Both the position numbers and the translations under genes were made by a program. Shown here piece by piece: positions 1,613 to 54,972 of a stretch of DNA of 64,000 nucleotides (positions are counted from its first letter, which is position 1; each line of letters starts with the position of its first letter). The stretch lies in contig CAVRPP010000003.1 in assembly GCA_963723165.1 (NCBI GenBank), positions 413,717 through 477,716 of the forward strand. The letters run 5' to 3'. The notes below the pieces were generated by a model. The model saw only the letters and a program-made list of their open reading frames with translations. It was not told the DNA's origin and ran no database searches. Origin of the DNA: an uncultured Actinomycetota bacterium. Its GTDB lineage: Bacteria; Actinomycetota; Acidimicrobiia; Spongiisociales; UBA4744.

Positions 1613-3145
1613 ATGAGGAAACCGGCCATACGAGACGAGCAAGGTGCGATCCTGCCGTTTGTGGCGCTCGTGCTGGTGCTGCTGCTCGGGTTGGCCTCAT
1701 TCGCCGTCGATCTCGGCTGGTTCTACCTGAACTCGACTCGTATCCAAAGAGCCGCAGAGTCGGCTGCCCTCGCCGGGGTGATCCACATGCCCCAGGCCTA
1801 CGCGACGAAAGCCGAACCCACAGCTTTGCAGGTGGCAGCCAGCAACGGCTACGTCGACGGAGCAGACAACGCTGCCATCACGGTCACCGACGGACTCATC
1901 TGGGGTGAGCCAAACCAGATCGAAGTTGAAATCAGCGACACTGTTGACACCTTCTTGCTGCGCGTGCTCGGAAGGCAGAATCAGACGATCACTCGTAGCG
2001 CCGTCGCCGAATATGTGCCGCCCCTGCCCCTGGGGAGCCCTGAATCGCAGTTCGGGAACAGCTGCGACCCCAATGAGCCCGGCTGCACGGGCCAGCCCAA
2101 CTTCTGGGCGAACATCCACGGTCGATACACCGACACCCGGATGGGTGACGCCTACTCGTCCTACTGCGAGGACGGCCAGGGCAGCGGAAACGCCGGATGC
2201 GGCCAAAACGTCTCATGGAGGAACCCGGCCACGTCGACCAGGGGAGGCGGGTACCTCTACGGGATAGAAGGAACCGCCGGCGTCCAGTTTTCGATTCAAT
2301 TCCTCGACATCGTCCATCACAACATCTCCGGCTCCGAAACCACCAACGACAACTGGCGAACCGGCGACCGCGGGTGCGAGGCGTGGGGCGATAGCAATGC
2401 GGACTGCGGTCAGACGGTGCGGACCACGCTGTATGCCCCGGATCCTTCTCCGCTCAACCTCAACGGCAACATAGCAATCTGCACCAGGGACTGGGCCCCG
2501 GCCCCGCAGGTGCCGGAGAGCGACCCCTATACGTGGGACACCTGGTGCCCGGTCATTCCGCCGTCAGATGGACTCTACGTTCTGCAGATCGAAGCGCTCG
2601 ATCCGCTCGCTTCTCCAAACCCGTCTGCCGACGCTGGCTGGTCGGGGCTCAACCGTTACTCGGTGCGGGCGACCAACGGATCGCGACTCTACGGGCTCGG
2701 CGACATGTCCCTCTACAACAATGCCACCGGCACGACCAGCGACTTCTACCTCGCCGAGGTGAGCGATATCTACTCGGGCAAGGACTTCGTGGTCGAGCTC
2801 TACGATCCCGGCGAAGCCAACCCGGGCGGTTGGGTCGAGATCAAGTCTCCCGCCGGAGCAGGAGTCTGGAATACCTACGCCAGCTGCCGGATGAGCGTGC
2901 GGACCAGCGAGACAGCCTCGTGGTCGAGTCCCACCACTCTGGCTCCCTGCCGCTTCTTTGCAAACAACGACGGCGGAGCCAACGACTACAACGGCGACTG
3001 GATCAAACTGGAGATGACCCTCAGCAGCTACGTCTGCGGCCCCAACTGCTGGTGGAAGCTCAACTACAACTACTCCAACAACGTGAACGACACCACCACC
3101 TGGAAGGCCTACATCGTCGGCAACCCGGTGCACCTCCTCAAGTAG
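1613..3145 (+). CDS. TadG-like Flp pilus assembly protein (Tad_N domain, large W/N/G-rich extracellular region)
   Basis: N-terminus QGAILPFVALVLVLLLGLASFAVDLGWFYLNSTRIQRAAESAALAG matches the TadG N-terminal (Tad_N) signature (AVDxGxxY...aAdaAALAGa). AGGGGAG RBS upstream. Confidence 0.75.
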   Translation: MRKPAIRDEQGAILPFVALVLVLLLGLASFAVDLGWFYLNSTRIQRAAESAALAGVIHMPQAYATKAEPTALQVAASNGYVDGADNAAITVTDGLIWGEPNQIEVEISDTVDTFLLRVLGRQNQTITRSAVAEYVPPLPLGSPESQFGNSCDPNEPGCTGQPNFWANIHGRYTDTRMGDAYSSYCEDGQGSGNAGCGQNVSWRNPATSTRGGGYLYGIEGTAGVQFSIQFLDIVHHNISGSETTNDNWRTGDRGCEAWGDSNADCGQTVRTTLYAPDPSPLNLNGNIAICTRDWAPAPQVPESDPYTWDTWCPVIPPSDGLYVLQIEALDPLASPNPSADAGWSGLNRYSVRATNGSRLYGLGDMSLYNNATGTTSDFYLAEVSDIYSGKDFVVELYDPGEANPGGWVEIKSPAGAGVWNTYASCRMSVRTSETASWSSPTTLAPCRFFANNDGGANDYNGDWIKLEMTLSSYVCGPNCWWKLNYNYSNNVNDTTTWKAYIVGNPVHLLK

Positions 3146-3318
3146 GGAACGCGACTACGGTCCCCGTCTGCACATGCCCGGCCGAGGGTCTGCTCCTTGA
3201 AAACCCACGTCAAGTTTTCTCGCCGACCGCCGATGACTGTTGCGTGGCAGGACCTGCCACAGGCTGGGAGGCTTGATCGAGCACCTTTATTGGGTGGTCG
3301 AATGAGCTGAGGAGTGAC

Positions 3319-3768
3319 ATGAGGTCTCGAGACTCAAAACGACCCGGCCGTTTCTTCTCCGGTGACCGCGGCGCCGCCCTCATGGAAGCTGCGTTGGTCA
3401 TGCCTCTCATGCTGATGCTCACCGTCGGCGTGTGGACCACGGCCCGGGCCTGGAACGTGCACAGCACACTCGACCACGCTGCTCGGGAAGCCGCCCGCTA
3501 CGGAGCGACCGAGGTCCCCTGGGGCGGGACCTCTGCTGCAATCGTGAGAGCCGTTGCCGACCAGGAGCTGCAAGCTTCTGCCATTGTGCCTGCGGATGTC
3601 ACCACCGTCTGCATAGCCGAGGGAAGCGCTCCCTGCGGTTTGGGCGCCATCCCCGATGTCGACCAGGTCGCGGTGCAATTGAGCTGGGACAACTACCGGA
3701 TGGACTTCATCTTCTTCACGATATCCGTTGACCTCAAGGCATCGGCGGTATCCCGCTGGGAGGGCTGA
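3319..3768 (+). CDS. TadE-like protein (paralog of 7746-8255)
   Basis: RGAALMEAALVMPLMLMLTVGVWTTARAWNVHSTLDHAAREAARYGAT. Good RBS (GAGGAG). Confidence 0.8.
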   Translation: MRSRDSKRPGRFFSGDRGAALMEAALVMPLMLMLTVGVWTTARAWNVHSTLDHAAREAARYGATEVPWGGTSAAIVRAVADQELQASAIVPADVTTVCIAEGSAPCGLGAIPDVDQVAVQLSWDNYRMDFIFFTISVDLKASAVSRWEG

Positions 3769-3769
3769 G

Positions 3770-5110
3770 ATGAGGAACCTCATCCACCGGGGCAGAGGAG
3801 AACTCGGCTTCAGCGCTATTTGGACGGCCATCACCGCCTTCTTCGTGGTTGGGGTAGCCGCCCTGGCGGTGGACGTCTCGGGTTTCTACCGGGAAGCAGC
3901 GGCGGAGCAATCCGCTGCGGACATGACGTGCCTCGCCGGGGTGAGGGATCTTCCGCAATCTCCGAGCGACGCCCTTGATCATGCCGTTGCCATTGCCCGA
4001 CAGAACTGGTCCGAGGTGGCAGGTGCACCGGCAACGATCGACCTGGTGGCCAAGACGGCCATCCTCGATAACGGCAGCGGCGACGTCGTGACCATTGTGG
4101 CCGGTTACGGAGGACAGCCAACCAAGATGGCCGTGACCGTCACCCAACAAGCCCCAACCCAATTCGGAAAGGTACTCGGGGCAAACAGCACTCGGATAAC
4201 CCAGGAGGCCTTCTGCAAGGTGCAGGGTCTCCACATCGGTGATCTTCCGTTTGGCGCCATCCCCGGCGGCGGCTTCGACGGTGAACTCCAGACCGGCAGC
4301 CTCTGTGCAAACGGGAACTGCCGGCCCCTGGAATTGCCCCGCGAGGACGGCACCGGCGCCGGCGTCTGGTTCATCCGCAACGTTGCCATAGGTGGGCAGG
4401 CGCAGCTCCTGCCGGTCAAGACCGCAGTACCGCCCGCATCGCTCACCGCGTGCGCTCCGTTCTCCGGGCCGTGCACCATTGTCAATCAGGATCAGGGCGT
4501 CTCCACCGGGCAGCTCTCCGACGGTATCGCCCGGGGCAACGGGGCAGCCGCAGTAGATGGACGATTTGAGAATCCGACCACGAGTTCTGTGTTCAGCAGC
4601 CTGGCGGGCCGAATTCTCGACGGCGACACCCCTGAAGAGATCCTCGATCCCGACTACGTGCTCGGCAGTCCGGGTACGTTCTCCGGAATCACCGGCGGCG
4701 GCCTCGGCAGCCTCGGGCAACCTCCGGGATGGGATGTTGACATACACGGCCTCTGGTCGGGCATCGACCCGGATCGGACCTACTACTACAACGAAACGGT
4801 CGCCAAGTGCGACTCACCGCGGCTGGGCCGCATCCCGATCATCGCTCAGGTCGACTGGGGACCCGGGCAGCCCCTGAACCTGCCGGGCGGTAATAGTGAT
4901 CCGGTGAAGGTGGTCGGCTTCTACCTGATCGCCCTGGAAGATCCCAACGAATCAAGCGACTTCTTGAACCCCTCCGACTCCCTCAAGAACCTGTCGGGGA
5001 AGGTTCTCTGGTTGGGACCGGACGCCAGTTGCAGCGGCACGGGGGGCAAGATAAAGCCCTACCAACCCGGTGACGTCAAGGTGCTGCGCCTGGTCGACGA
5101 AACAGCCTGA
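3770..5110 (+). CDS. TadG-like Flp pilus assembly protein (paralog of the degraded copy at 8252-9864)
   Basis: ELGFSAIWTAITAFFVVGVAALAVDVSGFYREAAAEQSAADMTCLAGV is a Tad_N-type N-terminus. The ATG at 3770 overlaps the stop of the upstream TadE-like gene. Confidence 0.75.
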   Translation: MRNLIHRGRGELGFSAIWTAITAFFVVGVAALAVDVSGFYREAAAEQSAADMTCLAGVRDLPQSPSDALDHAVAIARQNWSEVAGAPATIDLVAKTAILDNGSGDVVTIVAGYGGQPTKMAVTVTQQAPTQFGKVLGANSTRITQEAFCKVQGLHIGDLPFGAIPGGGFDGELQTGSLCANGNCRPLELPREDGTGAGVWFIRNVAIGGQAQLLPVKTAVPPASLTACAPFSGPCTIVNQDQGVSTGQLSDGIARGNGAAAVDGRFENPTTSSVFSSLAGRILDGDTPEEILDPDYVLGSPGTFSGITGGGLGSLGQPPGWDVDIHGLWSGIDPDRTYYYNETVAKCDSPRLGRIPIIAQVDWGPGQPLNLPGGNSDPVKVVGFYLIALEDPNESSDFLNPSDSLKNLSGKVLWLGPDASCSGTGGKIKPYQPGDVKVLRLVDETA

Positions 5111-9890: not shown

Positions 9891-10771
9891 ATGAAAACCC
9901 TGCCCCACCTCGTTACCGCCCTCATCTCCCCCTTCACCAGATCCGGCCACATCGATCTCGACGCCCACCGCCACAACCTCGAGGCCCTCAACCAACAAGG
10001 AATCAAGGGGTTTCTGATCGGCGGATCGACCGGGAGAAGGACCCTATCTCGAAACCGGCGACCGCCTCTTCCTGGTCGACGCCGCCCGACGTACATTGGG
10101 GAAACGGCCTTTCCTGCTCGCCGGTATCGCCGGCGAATCTTCTCGCTCCGCCCTTGCCCAGACCGAAGAAGCCACCGAGGGCGGTGCCGATGCAGTGCTG
10201 GTGGTGACCCCCACCACGATGGTTCGCGGCAACCACTCAGCAGTGGCCGCGTATCTTCGAAGATCTGGCAGACGCCGCCCGTGTTCCGGTCTTTCTCTAT
10301 TCCGTCCCGGCGGTGACCGGCTACACGCTCCCCGTGGAAACGGCGATCAAACTGTCCCGGCATCCCAACATCACCGGCATGAAGGATTCAGGCGGCGATC
10401 CGGTGGCCATGACTCGTCTTGCAGAGCAAACCGTCGACGACTTCGTCCTGATGACGGGTTCGTCGAAAGCGGTGAGGCTCTGCATGACTGCGGGAGCCCA
10501 TGGAGCCATCACCGCCAGCTCGAACTACCTGCCGGAACTCACCGGCCGGGTGGTGACGGCCGCCCGCAGAAACCTCCTGACCGCCGGCGAACTCCAGTCG
10601 ACACTGACCAGACTCTCGACCGCGGTCGAGGCGTACCGGGTGCCCGGGGTCAAAGCCGCAGCAGGAATGACCGGGCTCCGACCGGGACATCTGCGCAAAC
10701 CGCTCCGACCCGTGCCGCCCAAGGACAAGAGAGCAATCGCAAAGGTGCTGAAAGACGCCGGAATTCTCTAG
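9891..10771 (+). pseudogene. Dihydrodipicolinate synthase (DapA) family gene carrying two +1 frameshifts
   Basis: The N-terminus LVTALISPFTRSGHIDLDAHRHNLEALNQQGIKGFLIGGSTG and the C-terminus (...ITGMKDSGGD...SNYLPELTGRVVTAARRN...) are DapA-like. The reading frame changes at about 10033 (GGGAGAAGG) and about 10258 (TATCTTCG). Removing one base at each site restores ...GSTGEGPYLETGDRLFLVDAA... and ...AAYFEDLADAARVPVFLYSVPAVTGYTLPVETAIKL.... Confidence 0.6.
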
Positions 10772-44342: not shown

Positions 44343-45350
44343 TTACCCTTCGGTACCCAATCGGGCGTCGAAGCCGAGCTTCTTGCGGACTGAAGCCATC
44401 TCGCCCTCCGCCCTCATCCGGGCGTCGAGAGCGCCTTTGACCATGATCCTGGTTATCTCTTCATCCTCGAGGGCCTTGAATGCCAACCGGATGGGGCTGA
44501 GACCCTCAACCACCGCTTCCGCGACGGTCACTTTGAAGTGGCCGTATTGCGTGTCGTGGTACTCCCGGACGAGATCGTCGACCGGGCGGCCGGTGAAAAG
44601 CGACAGGATGTCGAGCAGGTTGGAGATGCCGGGCTTCTTTTCCCGGTCGTACAGTATTTCGCTCCCCGAGTCGGTCACTGCCGCCTTGAACCGGGAACGG
44701 ATGGTGTCCGGATCATCCAGTAAGAGAACCCGGCTGTTGGCATCGTCATCGGACTTCGACATCTTTGAGGTCGGATCCTTCAAGGACATGATCCGGGCGC
44801 CGATCTCGGGGGTGATCTGCTCCGGAAGTGGAAACTCGTCGCCAAATCGGGAGTTGAATCGCTCGGCCAGGTCCCGCGCCAGTTCCAGATGCTGGGTCTG
44901 GTCGTCACCGACGGGGACGGCATGAGCCTTGTGGACCAGGATGTCGGCAGCCATGAGCACGGGATAGGCGTATAAACCAAGGTTCTTCCCGGCCTTGTCT
45001 GCCTTCTCTTTGAACTGCGTCATGCGGTTGAGAGCTCCGAGAGATGTGATGGTGCTCAGCATCCACGAGAGCTCGGCGTGCTGGGGCACCTGACTCTGGA
45101 AGTACAGCAACGACCTAGCCGGATCCACTCCGACGGCGAGCAGGAGCTTGGCCGTGTTCAACCGGTTCTGATGGAGGGCAACCGGATCGTACGGAACAGT
45201 GATGGCATGGAGGTCGACGACACAGTAGATGGCGTCGTATCCGTCCTGCAGCTTCACCCAGTTGCGCAGTGCTCCCAGGTAGTTGCCGATATGAATGTCC
45301 CCGGTCGGTTGAATGCCCGAGAACACGGTCTTCTTGTCGCTCACCTTCAT
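44343..45350 (-). CDS. trpS: Tryptophanyl-tRNA synthetase
   Basis: FSGIQPTGDIHIGNYLGAL (HIGH region). KMSKS present (TSKMSKS). Confidence 0.9.
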   Translation of the reverse strand: MKVSDKKTVFSGIQPTGDIHIGNYLGALRNWVKLQDGYDAIYCVVDLHAITVPYDPVALHQNRLNTAKLLLAVGVDPARSLLYFQSQVPQHAELSWMLSTITSLGALNRMTQFKEKADKAGKNLGLYAYPVLMAADILVHKAHAVPVGDDQTQHLELARDLAERFNSRFGDEFPLPEQITPEIGARIMSLKDPTSKMSKSDDDANSRVLLLDDPDTIRSRFKAAVTDSGSEILYDREKKPGISNLLDILSLFTGRPVDDLVREYHDTQYGHFKVTVAEAVVEGLSPIRLAFKALEDEEITRIMVKGALDARMRAEGEMASVRKKLGFDARLGTEG

Positions 45351-45562
45351 CTCCTCAAAGAAAACGTCGGGGCCCCTCGGCCTCCGGCGCACTCGTTCGG
45401 GCGGGCCTCAATCGCCCGCCCTCCGTTCGAACCACATGATTCCCAGAGGCTAATGCAAAGACGGGCGATCCCCACCACGCCCCGCTGGATCTGCGACGCC
45501 GACGGCGGCCCCGCCCGGTGGGATCGACAGTCCGGTCGGGAACCAGGACTTGCTGCTCGCTG

Positions 45563-46945
45563 TCAGGTTGCAGCGGCGGAATTGCCGCCGCCAGGGAATA
45601 GCGTCTTTCGTGAGTCCCAGAAAACAGCACCCAGGATGATGAGCCCACCGACGCCGATGATCCATTTCAGGTACTGATCCTCGAAAGCTTCGCCGCAAGA
45701 AGCGCACTCCCTATTGACGGGAATGGCGCCGATTCTCCCGTTGGCCACAGGCGCAGTGAGATTGGAGTCAACGATGGAGGTCGACGTCGTTTCTGCGGGT
45801 ATGAGTGCCATGTCTGTAGGGGTGTGATCCGTCCCATGACAGCTCGTGCAATCAACCCGACCGAGATGAGGACTATGACAAACAACACACTCCGCATCAA
45901 CAGCCGTAGGGGTGTGATCCGTCCCATGACAGCTCGTGCAATCAACCCGACCGAGATGAGGACTATGACAAACAACACACTCCGCATCAACAGCCGTAGG
46001 GGTGTGATCCGTCCCATGACAGCTCGTGCAATCAACCCGACCGAGATGAGGACTATGACAAACAACACACTCCGCATCAACAGCCGTAGGGGTGTGATCC
46101 GTCCCATGACAGCTCGTGCAATCAACCCGACCGAGATGAGGACTATGGCAAGCAACACACTCCGCATCAACAGCCGTAGGGGTGTGATCCGTCCCATGAC
46201 AGCTCGTGCAATCAACCCGACCGAGATGAGGACTATGACAAACAACACACTCCGCATCAACAGCCGTAGGGGTGTGATCCGTCCCATGACAGCTCGTGCA
46301 ATCAACCCGACCGAGATGAGGACTATGACAAACAACACACTCCGCATCAACAGCCGTAGGGGTGTGATCCGTCCCATGACAGCTCGTGCAATCAACCCGA
46401 CCGTTGTGAGAGATGTGGCAAGCAACACACTCCGCATCAACAGCCGTAGGGGTGTGATCCGTCCCATGACAGCTCGTGCAATCAACCCGACCGTTGTGAG
46501 AGATGTGGCAAGCAACACACTCCGCATCAACAGCCGTAGGGGTGTGATCCGTCCCATGACAGCTCGTGCAATCAACCCGACCGTTGTGAGAGATGTGGCA
46601 AGCAACACACTCCGCATCAACAGCCGTAGGGGTGTGATCCGTCCCATGACAGCTCGTGCAATCAACCCGACCGTTGTGAGAGATGTGGCAAGCAACACAC
46701 TCCGCATCAACAGCCGTAGGGGTGTGATCCGTCTCATGACAGCTCGTGCAATCAGCCCGACCGTTGTGAGAGGTGTGGCAAGCGACACACGCGAAATCAG
46801 CAGGTCCGGGATCCTGGCGAGGACCTCTACTCAGTTGGACGGCCAAGTCACCGCCCGGTATGTCGGCGAGTACCGTCGGCTGGCCAAAAAGTAAGAAGCC
46901 AAGGCCAGCCAGCAGGATGGAGCCGATGGTGAGGCGCTTGTTCAC
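45563..46945 (-). CDS. Membrane-anchored tandem-repeat Cys/His-rich protein with 22 CxxCH motifs (candidate giant multihaem c-type cytochrome, or a novel metal-binding repeat protein)
   Basis: N-terminal signal peptide MNKRLTIGSILLAGLGFLLFGQPTVLA. Eleven 30-aa repeats (DAECV[AV]CH[IS][SP]H[NL]GRVDCTSCHGTDHTPTAV), each with 2 CxxCH. C-terminal TM helix KWIIGVGGLIILGAVFW. This is the only frame with start, signal peptide and TM anchor. Other long ORFs on both strands are periodicity artefacts. Confidence 0.6.
   Translation of the reverse strand: MNKRLTIGSILLAGLGFLLFGQPTVLADIPGGDLAVQLSRGPRQDPGPADFACVACHTSHNGRADCTSCHETDHTPTAVDAECVACHISHNGRVDCTSCHGTDHTPTAVDAECVACHISHNGRVDCTSCHGTDHTPTAVDAECVACHISHNGRVDCTSCHGTDHTPTAVDAECVACHISHNGRVDCTSCHGTDHTPTAVDAECVVCHSPHLGRVDCTSCHGTDHTPTAVDAECVVCHSPHLGRVDCTSCHGTDHTPTAVDAECVACHSPHLGRVDCTSCHGTDHTPTAVDAECVVCHSPHLGRVDCTSCHGTDHTPTAVDAECVVCHSPHLGRVDCTSCHGTDHTPTAVDAECVVCHSPHLGRVDCTSCHGTDHTPTDMALIPAETTSTSIVDSNLTAPVANGRIGAIPVNRECASCGEAFEDQYLKWIIGVGGLIILGAVFWDSRKTLFPGGGNSAAAT
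45815..46810. repeat. Eleven near-identical 90-nt in-frame tandem repeats inside the CxxCH gene, falling into two subfamilies
   Basis: Units start at 45821, 45911, ... 46721. Units toward the gene's 3' end (45821-46360) carry CCGAGATGAGGACTATGACAAACAAC (CVVCHSPHLGRV). Units toward its 5' end (46361-46810) carry CCGTTGTGAGAGATGTGGCAAGCAAC (CVACHISHNGRV). Only a few substitutions separate units. Confidence 0.9.
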
Positions 46946-47503
46946 TTGTTTGTCCCCAGGCAGTCATCGCCGGTACTGCCGGTTGGAACAGGAGACTCAC
47001 GGTATCACCGCGGGAGGAATCTCCCATGCCGGCCGTCTCACCGGACGCGGAACCCCATTGTTCGACTACGCCACCAACCTTCGTTCACCCTCACACTAGC
47101 GATTCGACAAACCGTCCCCGACCGTGAGAGTGACCCGGAAGGGCCGGTCGGGGAACGCGCACCCCCAAACATGATTGGCACAGCATCCGAAACCGCGGCC
47201 CCACCCCCAGCACCCCATGTGCCGTTATGTGCGGGTGTCCGGGCCCAAAGACCCTCGCTGTCCCAGCCCATGTTTCACCACGATCCGGATAACGGCGGTC
47301 GATTGCGTTCATTTCGAGTACTAGCGGGACCGTCTCACCTGGAACGATCGATGCCCTGCCAGAACCGGGAGCCCCGCACTAGAAGTGCCGTTATGTGCGT
47401 CCCGTGGGTCGAATGGCCCTACCCTCCAGATCGACCTTCCTTGCACTCTTGGAAGCATTATTGACCGGGCTGAGGGCATGGCAGGTGAGGAGGTAACGAC
47501 GCA

Positions 47504-47938
47504 ATGGAGATTGTCTGGGGTGTCGTCCTGATTGTTCTGGGTTTGCTGGCCTGGGGAGGGCAAGGTTTGTCCTATTTCGCTCCCAGCACCGCAGAGAAGC
47601 TGCATCTCACGGAGGGGGAAGAGAAGGTCGAGCCGGTTTTCTGGGCTGATGGCCAAGGTGAAGCGCTCTGGGACTTCTTGACCCTCTGGATCCTGGTGGT
47701 GGCAGGAGTCCTCCTCCTGTTGGATCACGACGCCTGGCCCTATTTCGGTCTGGTCGGCGGAAGCGTCTACGTCTACTTCGCAGGGAGAGGAATCCTCACC
47801 CGACTGGAGATGCAACGCAGCGGATTCCGCATAGGTGACCCAGGCAACGTCCGCCTCGGACTCATCATGCTCGCTGTATGGGGGGTGGTCGGTCTGATCA
47901 CCATCGTCACCGCAGCCACCACTTTCTCCGGCTCATGA
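47504..47938 (+). CDS. Hypothetical small membrane protein (144 aa, 4 TM)
   Basis: Hydrophobic segments MEIVWGVVLIVLGLLAWGG, LWDFLTLWILVVAGVLLLL, LIMLAVWGVVGLITIV. Paralog of the next gene. Confidence 0.5.
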   Translation: MEIVWGVVLIVLGLLAWGGQGLSYFAPSTAEKLHLTEGEEKVEPVFWADGQGEALWDFLTLWILVVAGVLLLLDHDAWPYFGLVGGSVYVYFAGRGILTRLEMQRSGFRIGDPGNVRLGLIMLAVWGVVGLITIVTAATTFSGS

Positions 47939-47966
47939 GCGACCCGTCAAGCAGAAGGTAGCAACC

Positions 47967-48401
47967 GTGGAAGTGACGACAGCGACCTGGCTGATAGCAA
48001 TTGCTGGACTTGTTCTGATACTCCTCCTTGGTGCGTTCCAGTTCGTGGCCGTGTTACGCCCCCGGTCCGATTGGACGGTCCAAAACGTTTACGGAGGTGA
48101 CCCGAACAGCACCGACCCCAAGGCGTACTTCGCCTACAACCAGGGGTACGCCTGGGCCGACGTATTCCTCTGGGCACCGATCCAAATCGCAGGCAGCATC
48201 GGCATGCTCCTTGGCGAGCGGTGGGGTTTTCTACTCGCCCTTGTCGCCTCTGTCCCATACGTATACACAGCCATCACCATCTACATCTGGGATCGCGACC
48301 TCGGTTCCCGCAAGAACACAATCGGCGGCTGGGTGCTCTGGGGGATCTGGCCGGTATTCGGACTCATCCAGGGTATCTACAGCCTTCTCAGACTCCTCTA
48401 A
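47967..48401 (+). CDS. Hypothetical small membrane protein (144 aa), paralog of 47504-47938
   Basis: Same length and TM topology as the upstream gene, with a conserved YVY motif region. Confidence 0.5.
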   Translation: MEVTTATWLIAIAGLVLILLLGAFQFVAVLRPRSDWTVQNVYGGDPNSTDPKAYFAYNQGYAWADVFLWAPIQIAGSIGMLLGERWGFLLALVASVPYVYTAITIYIWDRDLGSRKNTIGGWVLWGIWPVFGLIQGIYSLLRLL

Positions 48402-48469
48402 CCAAAACACCCGCTACCACCGAAACCGATCCGGTTTTCTGACCCCCTATCTCTCTTCCCCCGGTACTG

Positions 48470-50189: not shown

Positions 50190-50233
50190 TCAGGAAGGTT
50201 CGCGAGAAGGGAACCGGCGTGAACGTTCCGCAC

Positions 50234-51637
50234 ATGACTGCTGATGAGTTTCGGCGGCGGGGCCGAGAGATCATTGATTGGCTCGCTGATTACATGGAGC
50301 GAGTTGAGGAGTACCCGGTGCTCTCGCAGGTCAAACCGGGCGACATTCGTGCTTTGCTGCCCGAACACCCGCCCGCCGCGGGCGAGCCATTCGCCCGGGT
50401 CATGGGCGACCTCGACCGGGTCGTCATGCCCGGGATCACCCACTGGCAATCGCCCTCCTTCTTTGCCTATTTCAATGCCAACGCTTCCGGACCGGCGATT
50501 CTCGGGGATCTGGTTTCCTCCGGTCTCGGAGTACAGGGGATGCTGTGGGCAACCAGTCCCGCTTGCACCGAGCTCGAAACCGTGGTGATGGATTGGCTGG
50601 TGGAGATGCTGGAACTGCCCCCTGCGTTCCTGTCGTCCGGGGCCGGAGGCGGGGTCATCCAAGATTCGGCCTCCAGCGCCACGCTTACGGCCATAATCGC
50701 GGCTCGGGAGGCGGCCACGGAGCGAACCACCAACCACACCGGGACTGTAGGCAACCTCGTTGCCTACACCTCGACCCAGGCGCACTCGTCTATCGAGAAG
50801 GGGATTCGCATCGCCGGGATCGGCACCGACAACCTCCGTTCAGTCGAGGTGGACTCCGCCTTCGCGATGCTCCCCGCGGCCCTGGAAGAAGCCATCGAGG
50901 AGGATCTGGCTGCAGGCCTTCGGCCCTTCTTCGTCTGCGCCACCATCGGAACCACCTCGTCAACGGCCATCGATCCGGTTCGGGCCATCGGCGAAATCTG
51001 CCGCCGGTACGGTCTGTGGCTGCACGTCGATGCGGCGCTGGCCGGGACGGCGGCACTGTTGCCCGAGATGCGCTGGATCCACGATGGAGTCGAACTCGCT
51101 GACAGCTACGTATTCAATCCCCACAAGTGGATGCTGACCAACTTCGATTGCACGGCCTTCTATGTAGCCGACCGAACACCGCTCATCGGAGCGCTCAGCG
51201 TGCTGCCGGAGTACCTTCGCAACGAAGCTTCGGCCTCCGGAGCGGTGATCGACTACCGGGACTGGCACATCCCGCTTGGCCGCCGTTTCCGGGCACTGAA
51301 GCTCTGGTTCGTCATCCGCCATTACGGGATTGAAGGTCTTCAGGCCTTCGTGTCCGAACACATGCGGTTGGCCAAGCTCTTCGCCTCCTGGGTGGATGCC
51401 GAACCCGAGTTCGAACTGGCTGCCCCAACGCCGGTCAATCTCGTCTGCTTTCGCCACACCGGCGGGGACGACGTCAACCAGCGCATCATGGACCGGGTCA
51501 ACCAGTCCGGCGAGATGTATTTCACCCATTCCAGGCTCGACGGAAAGCTCACCTTGAGACTGTCGATCGGACAGACCCACACCGCCGAGCCGCACGTCGC
51601 GAAGGCATGGGAGCTGATCCGGGAAGCGGCTGAATAG
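50234..51637 (+). CDS. Pyridoxal-phosphate dependent group II decarboxylase (aromatic-L-amino-acid / tyrosine decarboxylase-like)
   Basis: MTADEFRRRGREIIDWLADYMERVEEYPV...ITHWQSPSFFAYF...SSATLTAIIAARE...FNPHKWMLTNFDC has the PLP-Lys motif N-P-H-K. Confidence 0.85.
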   Translation: MTADEFRRRGREIIDWLADYMERVEEYPVLSQVKPGDIRALLPEHPPAAGEPFARVMGDLDRVVMPGITHWQSPSFFAYFNANASGPAILGDLVSSGLGVQGMLWATSPACTELETVVMDWLVEMLELPPAFLSSGAGGGVIQDSASSATLTAIIAAREAATERTTNHTGTVGNLVAYTSTQAHSSIEKGIRIAGIGTDNLRSVEVDSAFAMLPAALEEAIEEDLAAGLRPFFVCATIGTTSSTAIDPVRAIGEICRRYGLWLHVDAALAGTAALLPEMRWIHDGVELADSYVFNPHKWMLTNFDCTAFYVADRTPLIGALSVLPEYLRNEASASGAVIDYRDWHIPLGRRFRALKLWFVIRHYGIEGLQAFVSEHMRLAKLFASWVDAEPEFELAAPTPVNLVCFRHTGGDDVNQRIMDRVNQSGEMYFTHSRLDGKLTLRLSIGQTHTAEPHVAKAWELIREAAE

Positions 51638-51685
51638 ACCTCGATTGCTCAACCGCGCTCCGATGCCTGGCGACACGGATGCGCT

Positions 51686-52280
51686 TTATGGATCGAAGAG
51701 GTCGCGGGGCGGAAGGCGAGTCACCGGTGGTTCCAGCCCGACCAACTGCCGGACCATGTGGGCGGTTGCACCCCACAGGACCTCTCCTTCGATGTCGAAA
51801 AACCAGACCTTGTGGTTCCGCCACATCTCAAAGCGCCAGTTGAGCGGCTCGGCGAAGATGTCGACGGCCGGTTCGAGAATCTTGTCCACCTCGCGGGGAG
51901 ACGGCATCAACTCCGGTATCCCGTTGATCCACCCGACTACCGGAACGACCAGCAGCGAGTATTCGATCGTATGAATGGCCGGCAGGAACCCGAGCACTTC
52001 AACCGACGCCGGGTTCAACCCAACTTCCTCTTCGGCTTCTCGCAGGGCTGTTCCGACCGGGCCCCCATCGCCCGTGTCCGGGCGCCCTCCGGGAAAGGCC
52101 AGGTGGCCTGCGTGGGTAGGCATGGTCATGGGTCGTTTCGTCAGAATCACCCGGGTCACGCCACCCCCGTCGTCGTAGAGGGGCACCAGCACCGCAGCCT
52201 GCGGCAATTCACCCGGTGGTGGGGGCTCACTCTGGATCCCCGGAAACCGGCCCAAGATATCGTTCACCCGAACATGGTAC
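51686..52280 (-). CDS. NUDIX hydrolase (CoA pyrophosphatase-like)
   Basis: Nudix box GGRPDTGDGGPVGTALREAEEEVGL. Start uncertain; the ORF extends to 52336. Confidence 0.7.

Positions 52281-53324: not shown

Positions 53325-54972
<1,648 letters not shown>

Follow-up and report, generated by a model that had tools for sequence, protein, structure and literature searches.

The window analyzed here is a 64,000-nt stretch of DNA from an uncultured Actinomycetota bacterium (assembly GCA_963723165.1, contig CAVRPP010000003.1, positions 413,717 to 477,716). Our subject is a gene on its minus strand, at positions 45563 to 46945, whose product contains eleven 30-aa repeats with two CxxCH motifs each. 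We consider it likely that this protein is a c-type multihaem cytochrome. Our best overall explanation, which we hold with less assurance but still favor, is a membrane-anchored cytochrome with 22 bis-histidine (bis-His) haems that form a linear electron chain. Comparative evidence shows that the cytochrome-like open reading frame (ORF) is a real gene under selection in an Acidimicrobiia (Actinomycetota) bacterium. Named matches to the GuaA protein of the window (78 to 88% identity) are all from metagenome-assembled genomes (MAGs) of Acidimicrobiia, with the best unnamed matches 92% identical, and all homologues of the cytochrome are from Acidimicrobiia or metagenomes. What is new in the predicted protein is its minimal tandem module, its recent expansion at the DNA level, its C-terminal anchor, and its actinobacterial host; proteins of the c3-superfamily kind are known.

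Architecture of the gene and its repeats

The gene and its parts are listed below by window position.

45563 to 46945, minus strand: whole gene, encoding the 460-aa precursor of a putative 22-haem cytochrome (ORF list and translation).
46953 to 46957, minus strand: Shine-Dalgarno-like GGGGA, 7 nt ahead of the GTG start codon (read directly from the sequence).
46865 to 46945, minus strand: predicted signal peptide, aa 1 to 27, with a basic n-region (KR), a hydrophobic core, and a cleavage-type site between VLA and D.
45827 to 46816, minus strand: array of eleven 90-nt units, encoding predicted 30-aa dihaem units, aa 44 to 373.
46727 to 46816, minus strand: unit 0, with 18 nt different from type A.
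46367 to 46726, minus strand: units 1 to 4, type A, CVACHISHNGRV, identical at the nucleotide level.
46187 to 46366, minus strand: units 5 and 6, type B, CVVCHSPHLGRV, identical in nucleotide sequence to units 8 to 10.
46097 to 46186, minus strand: unit 7, an A/B chimera (CVACHSPH) inside the B block.
45827 to 46096, minus strand: units 8 to 10, type B, identical in nucleotide sequence to units 5 and 6.
45671 to 45826, minus strand: stalk or linker, aa 374 to 425 (alignments; AlphaFold2 predicted local distance difference test [pLDDT] score of <50 over aa 355 to 415).
45617 to 45670, minus strand: C-terminal transmembrane helix, aa ~426 to 443, LKWIIGVGGLIILGAVFW (hydrophobic stretch kept in homologues).
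45566 to 45616, minus strand: short basic cytoplasmic tail, DSRKTLFPGGGNSAAAT (positive charges after the helix in all homologues).
45460 to 45476, minus strand: terminator-like hairpin downstream of the gene (consensus scan; conserved in an alignment with the related locus L007).

The frame of 1383 nt is intact from the GTG start codon (46945 to 46943) to the stop codon (45565 to 45563), and aligned orthologues agree on the start site (M-x-x-R-L). Judged by inspection, the N-terminal signal-like sequence is MNKRLTIGSILLAGLGFLLFGQPTVLA followed by D, and the same pattern is kept in the homologues P0001, P0003, and P0004 and in the ORF of locus L009. In the stalk, a conserved patch of Ser and Thr (TTSTS) is accompanied by a single additional CxxC (CASCG) and by a juxtamembrane motif (FEDQYL). 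The hydrophobic helix is directly followed by DSRK, and the helix that AlphaFold2 placed at residues 418 to 449 is the sole well-scored part of the model (pLDDT, 73 to 87). Hence, the protein has both the signal peptide and the C-terminal transmembrane anchor claimed in an earlier interpretation of this DNA, made from its letters and ORFs (the sequence-only reading), and its homologues conserve them. We also looked for known C-terminal sorting signals (e.g., LPXTG, PEP-CTERM, and GlyGly-CTERM) and found none: an NCBIfam scan at E values up to 10 gave only an irrelevant sub-threshold hit, and LPXTG is absent from the protein sequence.

Tandem Repeats Finder reported a 90-nt period at positions 45816 to 46763 (10.5 copies; 98% matches; score, 1636). 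In the protein register, there are 11 units with 22 CxxCH motifs, as the sequence-only reading had described, and the start-to-start spacing of the motifs alternates strictly between 13 and 17 residues. A six-frame scan of the 64 kb found 24 CxxCH motifs, 22 of them in this gene, and the cluster is therefore not due to chance. Nine nucleotides distinguish type A from type B, all of them in one 19-nt stretch (unit positions 34 to 52). In this stretch, a Cys codon and both His codons are changed only synonymously, and all four other codons are changed nonsynonymously. Two subfamilies of units had been proposed, each contiguous; types A and B do exist, but the contiguity is not strict, since the chimeric unit 7 lies within the B block. 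The claim that all three frames stay open across the array on both strands did not hold: of the six, just three (two minus-strand frames and one plus-strand frame) are free of stop codons, and the other three hold 11 to 37 stops.

Conserved histidines and cytochrome relatives

A word-index search for homologues yielded one clear orthologue, P0001 (259 aa), which has four diverged units and the same signal peptide, TTSTS stalk, and C-terminal helix as the window protein; the named proteins that this search returned are annotated as cytochrome c3 family. An exhaustive HMMER search of 1.84 billion representatives gave 221 matches and added P0003 (five units), P0006 (two units), and several fragments. 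All 72 of the matches outside the family whose sequence was read are CxxCH-rich.

The unit has the architecture D-x2-C-x2-C-H-x2-H-x2-R-x-D-C-x2-C-H-x3-H. We compared 29 distinct units from 8 loci, with a mutual identity of ~50%. Nine positions are invariant (C7, C10, H11, H14, R17, D19, C20, C23, and H24), two are nearly so (H28 in 27 of 29 units and D4 in 28 of 29), and all others vary. An extra His after each CxxCH had been noted before, and we found each motif to be paired with exactly one further invariant His, at +3 in the first half-unit and at +4 in the second. Array His and CxxCH are always in an exact 2:1 ratio (44/22, 36/18, 16/8, 20/10, 8/4, 8/4, and 10/5). The window protein has 23 CxxC motifs, 22 of which are CxxCH, the lone exception being outside the array; every array CxxC in seven homologues is CxxCH. 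Met does not occur in the window array and is absent or sporadic, and never conserved, in the homologue arrays. A four-Cys zinc site accounts for none of the conservation of His, Arg, and Asp in the unit, whereas a bis-His haem c site accounts for all of it. The proximal ligand would be the His of CxxCH, with one distal His for each haem and with Arg and Asp available for the haem propionates. The array is almost without aromatic residues and has few large hydrophobic ones, a composition that fits a fold with the cofactor as its core.

Profile searches gave a mixed outcome for the cytochrome families proposed by the sequence-only reading as a check. The Pfam family Cytochrom_c3_2 (PF14537) matched well above its cut-off (46.4 bits versus 25; E = 5.7e-12; 8 stretches), whereas the doubled CXXCH family (PF09699/TIGR01905) scored 15.2 bits (E = 0.018), under its gathering score of 20.6. 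We then compared a family profile, built from four-unit slices, with the Protein Data Bank (PDB), counting matches at E values up to 1. Multihaem cytochromes c accounted for 28 of the 31 matches. The best was the 16-haem Hmc (1z1n; E = 7.7e-10), and others included Hmc entries 1h29 and 1gws, nine-haem cytochromes, MtrA (6r2q_A), GSU1996, c7, c3, Fcc3, UndA, and STC. The three exceptions were a DnaJ zinc-finger domain (6jzb; E = 0.009), a cytochrome c552 entry (5ze8; E = 0.19), and a copper ATPase domain (E = 0.41). The unit aligned to Hmc residues 348 to 383, where three consecutive haem sites are spaced by 13 and 16 residues, and the CxxCH pair within the unit aligned to the c7 haem pair at residues 48 to 66. 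The predicted local spacing of haems therefore has solved precedents. We concluded that the protein most likely belongs to the c3 superfamily, as a bis-His multihaem c-type cytochrome, rather than being a zinc ribbon. Thus, the sequence-only reading had left open a choice between haem and non-haem (Cys/His metal-binding) arrays, and the sequence evidence (CxxCH/His statistics, Cytochrom_c3_2, PDB profile, and export) favors haem.

The closest solved likeness is to class III cytochromes (c3, c7/PpcA, STC, Hmc, the nine-haem protein, and GSU1996). These have CxxCH attachment, bis-His ligation, little secondary structure, and a haem core, features that the window protein would have in common with them, and they share with it the CxxCH-x8-CxxCH pair with its NG turn (c7 residues 48 to 66) and the 13/16-17 spacing (Hmc residues 348 to 383). 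GSU1996, Hmc, and the nine-haem protein are likewise made of repeated small modules. However, class III modules have ~23 to 35 residues per haem, compared with 15 over the 22 sites of the window array, and class III domains are tri- or tetrahaem domains of 70 to 110 aa, compared with a predicted dihaem module of 30 aa. Moreover, the window units, unlike class III modules, are near-identical at the DNA level, and class III proteins are soluble proteins of the Gram-negative periplasm, whereas the window protein is C-terminally anchored and actinobacterial.

Other likenesses are more limited. Metagenomic proteins of the cytochrome c3 family or doubled CXXCH type with 20 to 34 motifs (P0067, P0018, and P0040) have paired units of ~32 to 36 aa (32 to 33 aa in P0067) with the same CxxCH-x2-3-H logic, i.e., a His 3 to 4 residues after each motif (e.g., CLRCHSRPHVDRGxCLQCHTTSSWxFxHP). 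Their units are mutually diverged and have aromatic residues and extra spacer, unlike those of the window protein. They also lack the N-terminal HDPxPAD motif, TTSTS stalk, and C-terminal anchor of the window family, and their similarity to the window protein (21 to 30% identity) is confined to the motif skeleton. The doubled CXXCH domain is a two-CxxCH module of ~40 aa that occurs in tandem in large cytochromes and in many of the distant matches to the family profile; the window unit is 10 residues shorter, and its score is below gathering. Envelope cytochromes of monoderms (OcwA and its partners in Thermincola potens/ferriacetica; Carboxydothermus) are multihaem and, as predicted for the window protein, located outside the membrane in cells without an outer membrane (PMC7720022, PMC6703420). 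OcwA is a globular nine-haem relative of NrfA-type proteins (PMC6703420, PMC9250108) from Firmicutes, whereas the window protein is a tandem array from Actinomycetota. OcwA chains were not among the 31 PDB profile matches, and the resemblance is limited to the cell-envelope setting.

We next considered haem density, since the sequence-only reading had called the protein denser than known multihaem cytochromes. The array has one motif per 15 aa, and the precursor as a whole has one per 20.9 aa. Published values are 22.4 to 23.4 residues per haem, termed "remarkably high," and elsewhere 22 to 25 (PMC7399161), or a density "as low as 20" residues per heme (bioRxiv 10.1101/2025.05.29.656830). For 60 related predicted multihaem cytochromes, the whole-protein median was 24.8 aa per motif (minimum, 17.9), and their densest 8-motif stretches had a median of 17.7 (minimum, 14.4), compared with 13.5 for the window protein. 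The P0067-type proteins reach 14.4 to 16 aa per motif locally and 19.5 to 22 over the whole protein. The predicted density of the window protein is thus clearly above that of any solved structure, and the claim stands against solved structures and the literature range of ~20 to 25, but it is overstated with regard to predicted metagenomic cytochromes. We concluded that the predicted cytochrome is the dense extreme of an existing, uncharacterized continuum and not a category of its own.

Unit number, proposed mechanism, and alternatives

Family members have 2, 4, 5, 9, at least 10, and, in the window, 11 units. P0028 is annotated as a "hypothetical protein" of 125 aa from a MAG of an Acidimicrobiia bacterium (GCA_013001665.1) but is really the end of a longer ORF (L009, positions 3065 to 4282), which encodes 405 aa in all, with 18 CxxCH motifs in nine diverged units. 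The public record for this locus (contig JABDMA010000062.1, HKN80_01820) calls only the last 125 aa of the ORF, which has a signal peptide. L011, found in a metagenome scan, is close to L009 and has at least 10 units, two of which are identical, indicative of a one-unit duplication. Tandem repeats with a 90-nt period also occur in L008 (2.3 copies; 96%) and L010 (4.4 copies; 88%), with high identity, and duplication of units has therefore been recurrent and independent. At L010 (positions 200 to 1480; ENA ERZ25039600 contig_1148), the repeat array is spread over three frames, with an antisense ORF called across it; the scatter is probably due to long-read indel errors inside the 4.4-copy repeat. 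The ratio of nonsynonymous to synonymous substitution rates (dN/dS) was 0.27 for L009 versus L011 and 0.42 for the window versus L007; on these estimates, purifying selection on the family is seen. With the patterns used, a scan of genome contigs of GTDB species representatives returned no orthologue and only distant cytochromes of other phyla. Exact-sequence look-ups with the window protein and with PurH gave no match. The proposal of a recent, stepwise, in-frame expansion with copy-number variation is supported by the homologues with 2 to 11 units, by the L011/L009 duplication, and by L008 and L010.

We propose the following mechanism. The product would be a Sec-exported type I membrane protein with a multihaem c-type cytochrome as its ectodomain. 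In every unit, the two CxxCH motifs would covalently bind two haems, and the two extra invariant His residues would serve as sixth (distal) ligands, for a total of 22 low-spin bis-His haems. The haems themselves would be the core of the fold, with the invariant Arg and Asp as probable propionate contacts. These steps we regard as strongly suggested by the evidence above; those that follow, as moderately so. The haems may be closely packed in a linear chain, which would extend for ~17 nm at the spacing of MtrA or OmcS, i.e., roughly 0.8 nm for each haem. The C-terminal helix and the flexible Ser/Thr stalk would tether the chain to the outer face of the cytoplasmic membrane, where it may relay or store electrons, with the membrane respiratory chain at one end and acceptors or donors within the cell wall or outside it at the other. 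The number of units, altered by unequal recombination between the 90-nt units, may set the length, reach, or capacity of the chain. We consider a wire function moderately likely.

Several results weigh against the cytochrome or its proposed role. The Pfam family Zn_ribbon_11 (PF11682) matched 11 stretches at 48.5 bits, versus a cut-off of 24, and the DnaJ zinc-finger domain noted above is among the PDB matches. The 64-kb window contains no cytochrome c maturation genes (CcsBA/ResBC, CcdA, or ResA) and no other gene with CxxCH; Actinomycetota with a bcc complex carry System II cytochrome c maturation. No conserved redox partner was found near the family loci, and there is no solved precedent for 15 residues per haem over 22 sites. 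Structure prediction did not yield a cytochrome fold. AlphaFold2 modeled the full protein (8-row alignment; pLDDT, 56) as an all-beta, beta-solenoid-like stack, for which Foldseek returned only beta-helix proteins from the PDB, with E values of >1; we rejected this model as a repeat artefact. In the model of a 4-unit slice of P0001 (pLDDT, 56), the first CxxCH of every unit is helical, and Foldseek returned no match. Both models were set aside because they are of low confidence and contradict each other (all-beta versus helical). A fold with a cofactor core probably explains the failure. Lastly, 4-haem homologues would be unable to span a cell wall, so that "wall-spanning wire" is not the function of the whole family.

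This last point bears on the alternative that survives best, which we nevertheless think somewhat unlikely: the protein would be a multihaem cytochrome with another job, such as an extracytoplasmic capacitor, a short-range hub that links membrane complexes, or a reductase of soluble metals or oxyanions at the membrane surface, and not a conduit across the wall. Members with 2 to 5 units (4 to 10 haems; ~3 to 8 nm) are too short for the monoderm (Gram-positive) wall, which is 20 to 80 nm thick (PMC7720022). Moreover, there is no conserved partner or terminal reductase gene nearby, the gene is accessory (it is absent from four close relatives), and both wire and capacitor roles have been suggested for very haem-dense cytochromes (PMC7399161). 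However, repeated independent lengthening of the array reads more easily as selection on reach, although it also fits selection on capacity; the sequence itself does not discriminate between conduit and capacitor.

A second alternative, which we consider unlikely, accepts the gene as real but attributes the number and order of its units (AAAA-BB-chimera-BBB) to an assembly artefact or a collapsed mixed population. Blocks of nucleotide-identical sequence extend over up to four 90-nt units (360 nt), so a count of 11 is beyond what short reads can fix. Contigs of relatives end inside the array (L007, L011, L012, and the P0004 contig), as short-read assembly of such repeats would produce. The window assembly is not error-free. 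Its groEL gene (53325 to 54951, minus strand) is split into two overlapping ORFs in different frames, covering GroEL profile positions 1 to 352 and 376 to 536, which reflects either a long-read-type indel error or a pseudogene. A gene for a DapA-like aldolase (9891 to 10771, plus strand) is fragmented, with profile positions 1 to 44 and 136 to 285 present and the middle absent from both frames, a second sign of assembly indel errors. However, these same frameshifts suggest a long-read assembly, with reads that would span the 1-kb array. In addition, the 1383-nt frame is intact, and the ordered pattern of A, B, and chimeric units is unlike a collapsed or looped repeat. Long arrays do exist, since the nine units of L009 are diverged and could be resolved by any assembler. 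A true count of 11 units is plausible.

The third alternative concerns the cofactor. The repeats would be non-haem Cys/His metal-binding or disulfide-stabilized elements, i.e., zinc-ribbon-like knuckle pairs or Cu/Zn/Ni sites, and the protein a stalk or metal sponge. The CxxC-x9-CxxC spacing of the window unit is common to zinc-ribbon and DnaJ-type CxxC repeats. Besides the Zn_ribbon_11 and DnaJ matches, the PDB searches gave ribosomal L37 at an E value of ~1, and the first AlphaFold2 model, though of low confidence, has beta-hairpins around each NG turn. Against this, the Zn_ribbon_11 match spans only the four-Cys skeleton (profile positions ~5 to 30). Zinc ribbons need no His, whereas the two His residues that go with each CxxC do not vary across ~90 motifs of diverged homologues. 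Four Cys ligands in a reducing cytoplasm would not explain the pattern of the unit, in which four His, one Arg, and two Asp are as invariant as Cys. The protein has a signal peptide and a single C-terminal anchor and would be exported to an oxidizing compartment, where Cys4 zinc sites are unusual. The PDB profile spectrum is dominated by c-type cytochromes (28 of 31 matches, including all of the better-scoring ones). We regard a non-haem protein as improbable. Least probable is a decaying or selfish minisatellite expansion in a dispensable islet gene with no current function: the islet is missing from four relatives, codon usage is atypical (GC content at third codon positions [GC3], 0.52), and the units are near-identical, but the frame and all 44 Cys and 44 His residues are intact, omega is <1 in two comparisons, and diverged homologues with 9 and 10 units keep the same unit architecture.

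Genomic setting and meaning for the family

The putative cytochrome gene lies in a segment that differs from the surrounding DNA in its distribution among relatives. The features of this segment outside the cytochrome gene are as follows.

45399 to 48468, no strand: accessory islet of ~3.07 kb (BLASTN against L015 and L016; gene maps of L015 to L018).
47504 to 47938, plus strand: 144-aa multi-pass membrane protein, divergent to the cytochrome gene (ORF; part of the islet).
47967 to 48401, plus strand: second 144-aa multi-pass membrane protein, a weak paralogue of the first (26% identity; E = 0.007).

Besides the cytochrome gene, the islet holds the two small membrane-protein genes and, in between, a spacer of 557 bp. 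All of this is missing from four close relatives (L015 to L018; ~80% nucleotide identity), in which the leuA-like gene adjoins trpS with a gap of 232 to 322 bp; hence, we call positions 45399 to 48468 an accessory islet. GC content is 0.59 to 0.60 in the islet and 0.62 to 0.65 in its flanks, and GC3 is 0.52 in the cytochrome gene, compared with ~0.75 in its neighbors. No flanking direct repeats, tRNA, or integrase were seen at the islet edges. Searches of plasmids with tblastn gave only compositional or repeat matches and one unrelated gene of the cytochrome c3 family, with no sign of a plasmid-borne islet. In L007, which is about as distant as L015 to L018, the cytochrome gene is also next to trpS, and the contig begins in the last unit. 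Across the family loci, the neighbors vary (trpS, AllG, a hydrolase, and ADH) with no conserved operon partner, and there is no upstream synteny between the window and L001.

Neither islet membrane protein had a Pfam or NCBIfam match, even at E values up to 1. A relation to Listeria EetA/EetB-type proteins was considered and found no support. Within the 557-bp spacer that separates these two divergent genes from the cytochrome gene is a 28-nt direct repeat (47206 to 47233 and 47372 to 47399; 82% identity; 166 nt apart) with a palindrome-like core, CGCAC...GTGCG, and no Rfam hit; the repeat may be an operator or promoter element. An Rfam search (at gathering scores, and at E values up to 1 on positions 45300 to 47600) gave no RNA family for either the spacer or the trpS-proximal region. 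In the latter, the segment from the cytochrome stop codon to trpS (45393 to 45562) is conserved with L007 more strongly than are parts of the coding sequence and contains GC-rich hairpins, e.g., GGGCGGGCGATTGAGGCCCGCCC, with no Rfam match. A scan for promoters and terminators gave no signals above shuffle expectation, including the hairpin at 45460 to 45476. Beyond the islet, positions 50190 to 51690 contain ORFs without family matches (e.g., 50960 to 51676), whereas in L015 to L018 a pyridoxal-dependent decarboxylase gene separates the leuA-like gene from the NUDIX gene. The window may differ locally here for a second time, or the gene may be degraded.

We tentatively put forward the possibility that the family provides a length-tunable haem wire on a minimal scaffold of 15 residues per haem, denser than in any solved cytochrome, with each 30-aa module providing covalent attachment and both distal His ligands in cis. 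The number of modules (2 to 11), set by unequal recombination, would fix the reach into or through the envelope. If so, Acidimicrobiia would have their first described extracellular electron conduit based on a cytochrome, and the family would be a case of natural copy-number control of electron-transfer distance. Multihaem cytochromes have rarely been reported in Actinomycetota (PMC7399161), and the route of electrons across the monoderm wall is explicitly described in the literature as an open problem (PMC7720022). Arrays of near-perfect 90-nt repeats fragment short-read contigs and lead gene callers astray, so such proteins are probably under-counted in surveys of electroactive potential. 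The family offers a natural series of 4, 8, 10, 18, at least 20, and 22 predicted haems in which chain length can be compared with function. If the haems are present, 30 aa for two haems would be the most economical natural haem-binding polypeptide yet seen and a useful template for designed bioelectronic wires, and a cytochrome-based envelope electron path would be added to the Acidimicrobiia, an abundant lineage of sediment, soil, and water.

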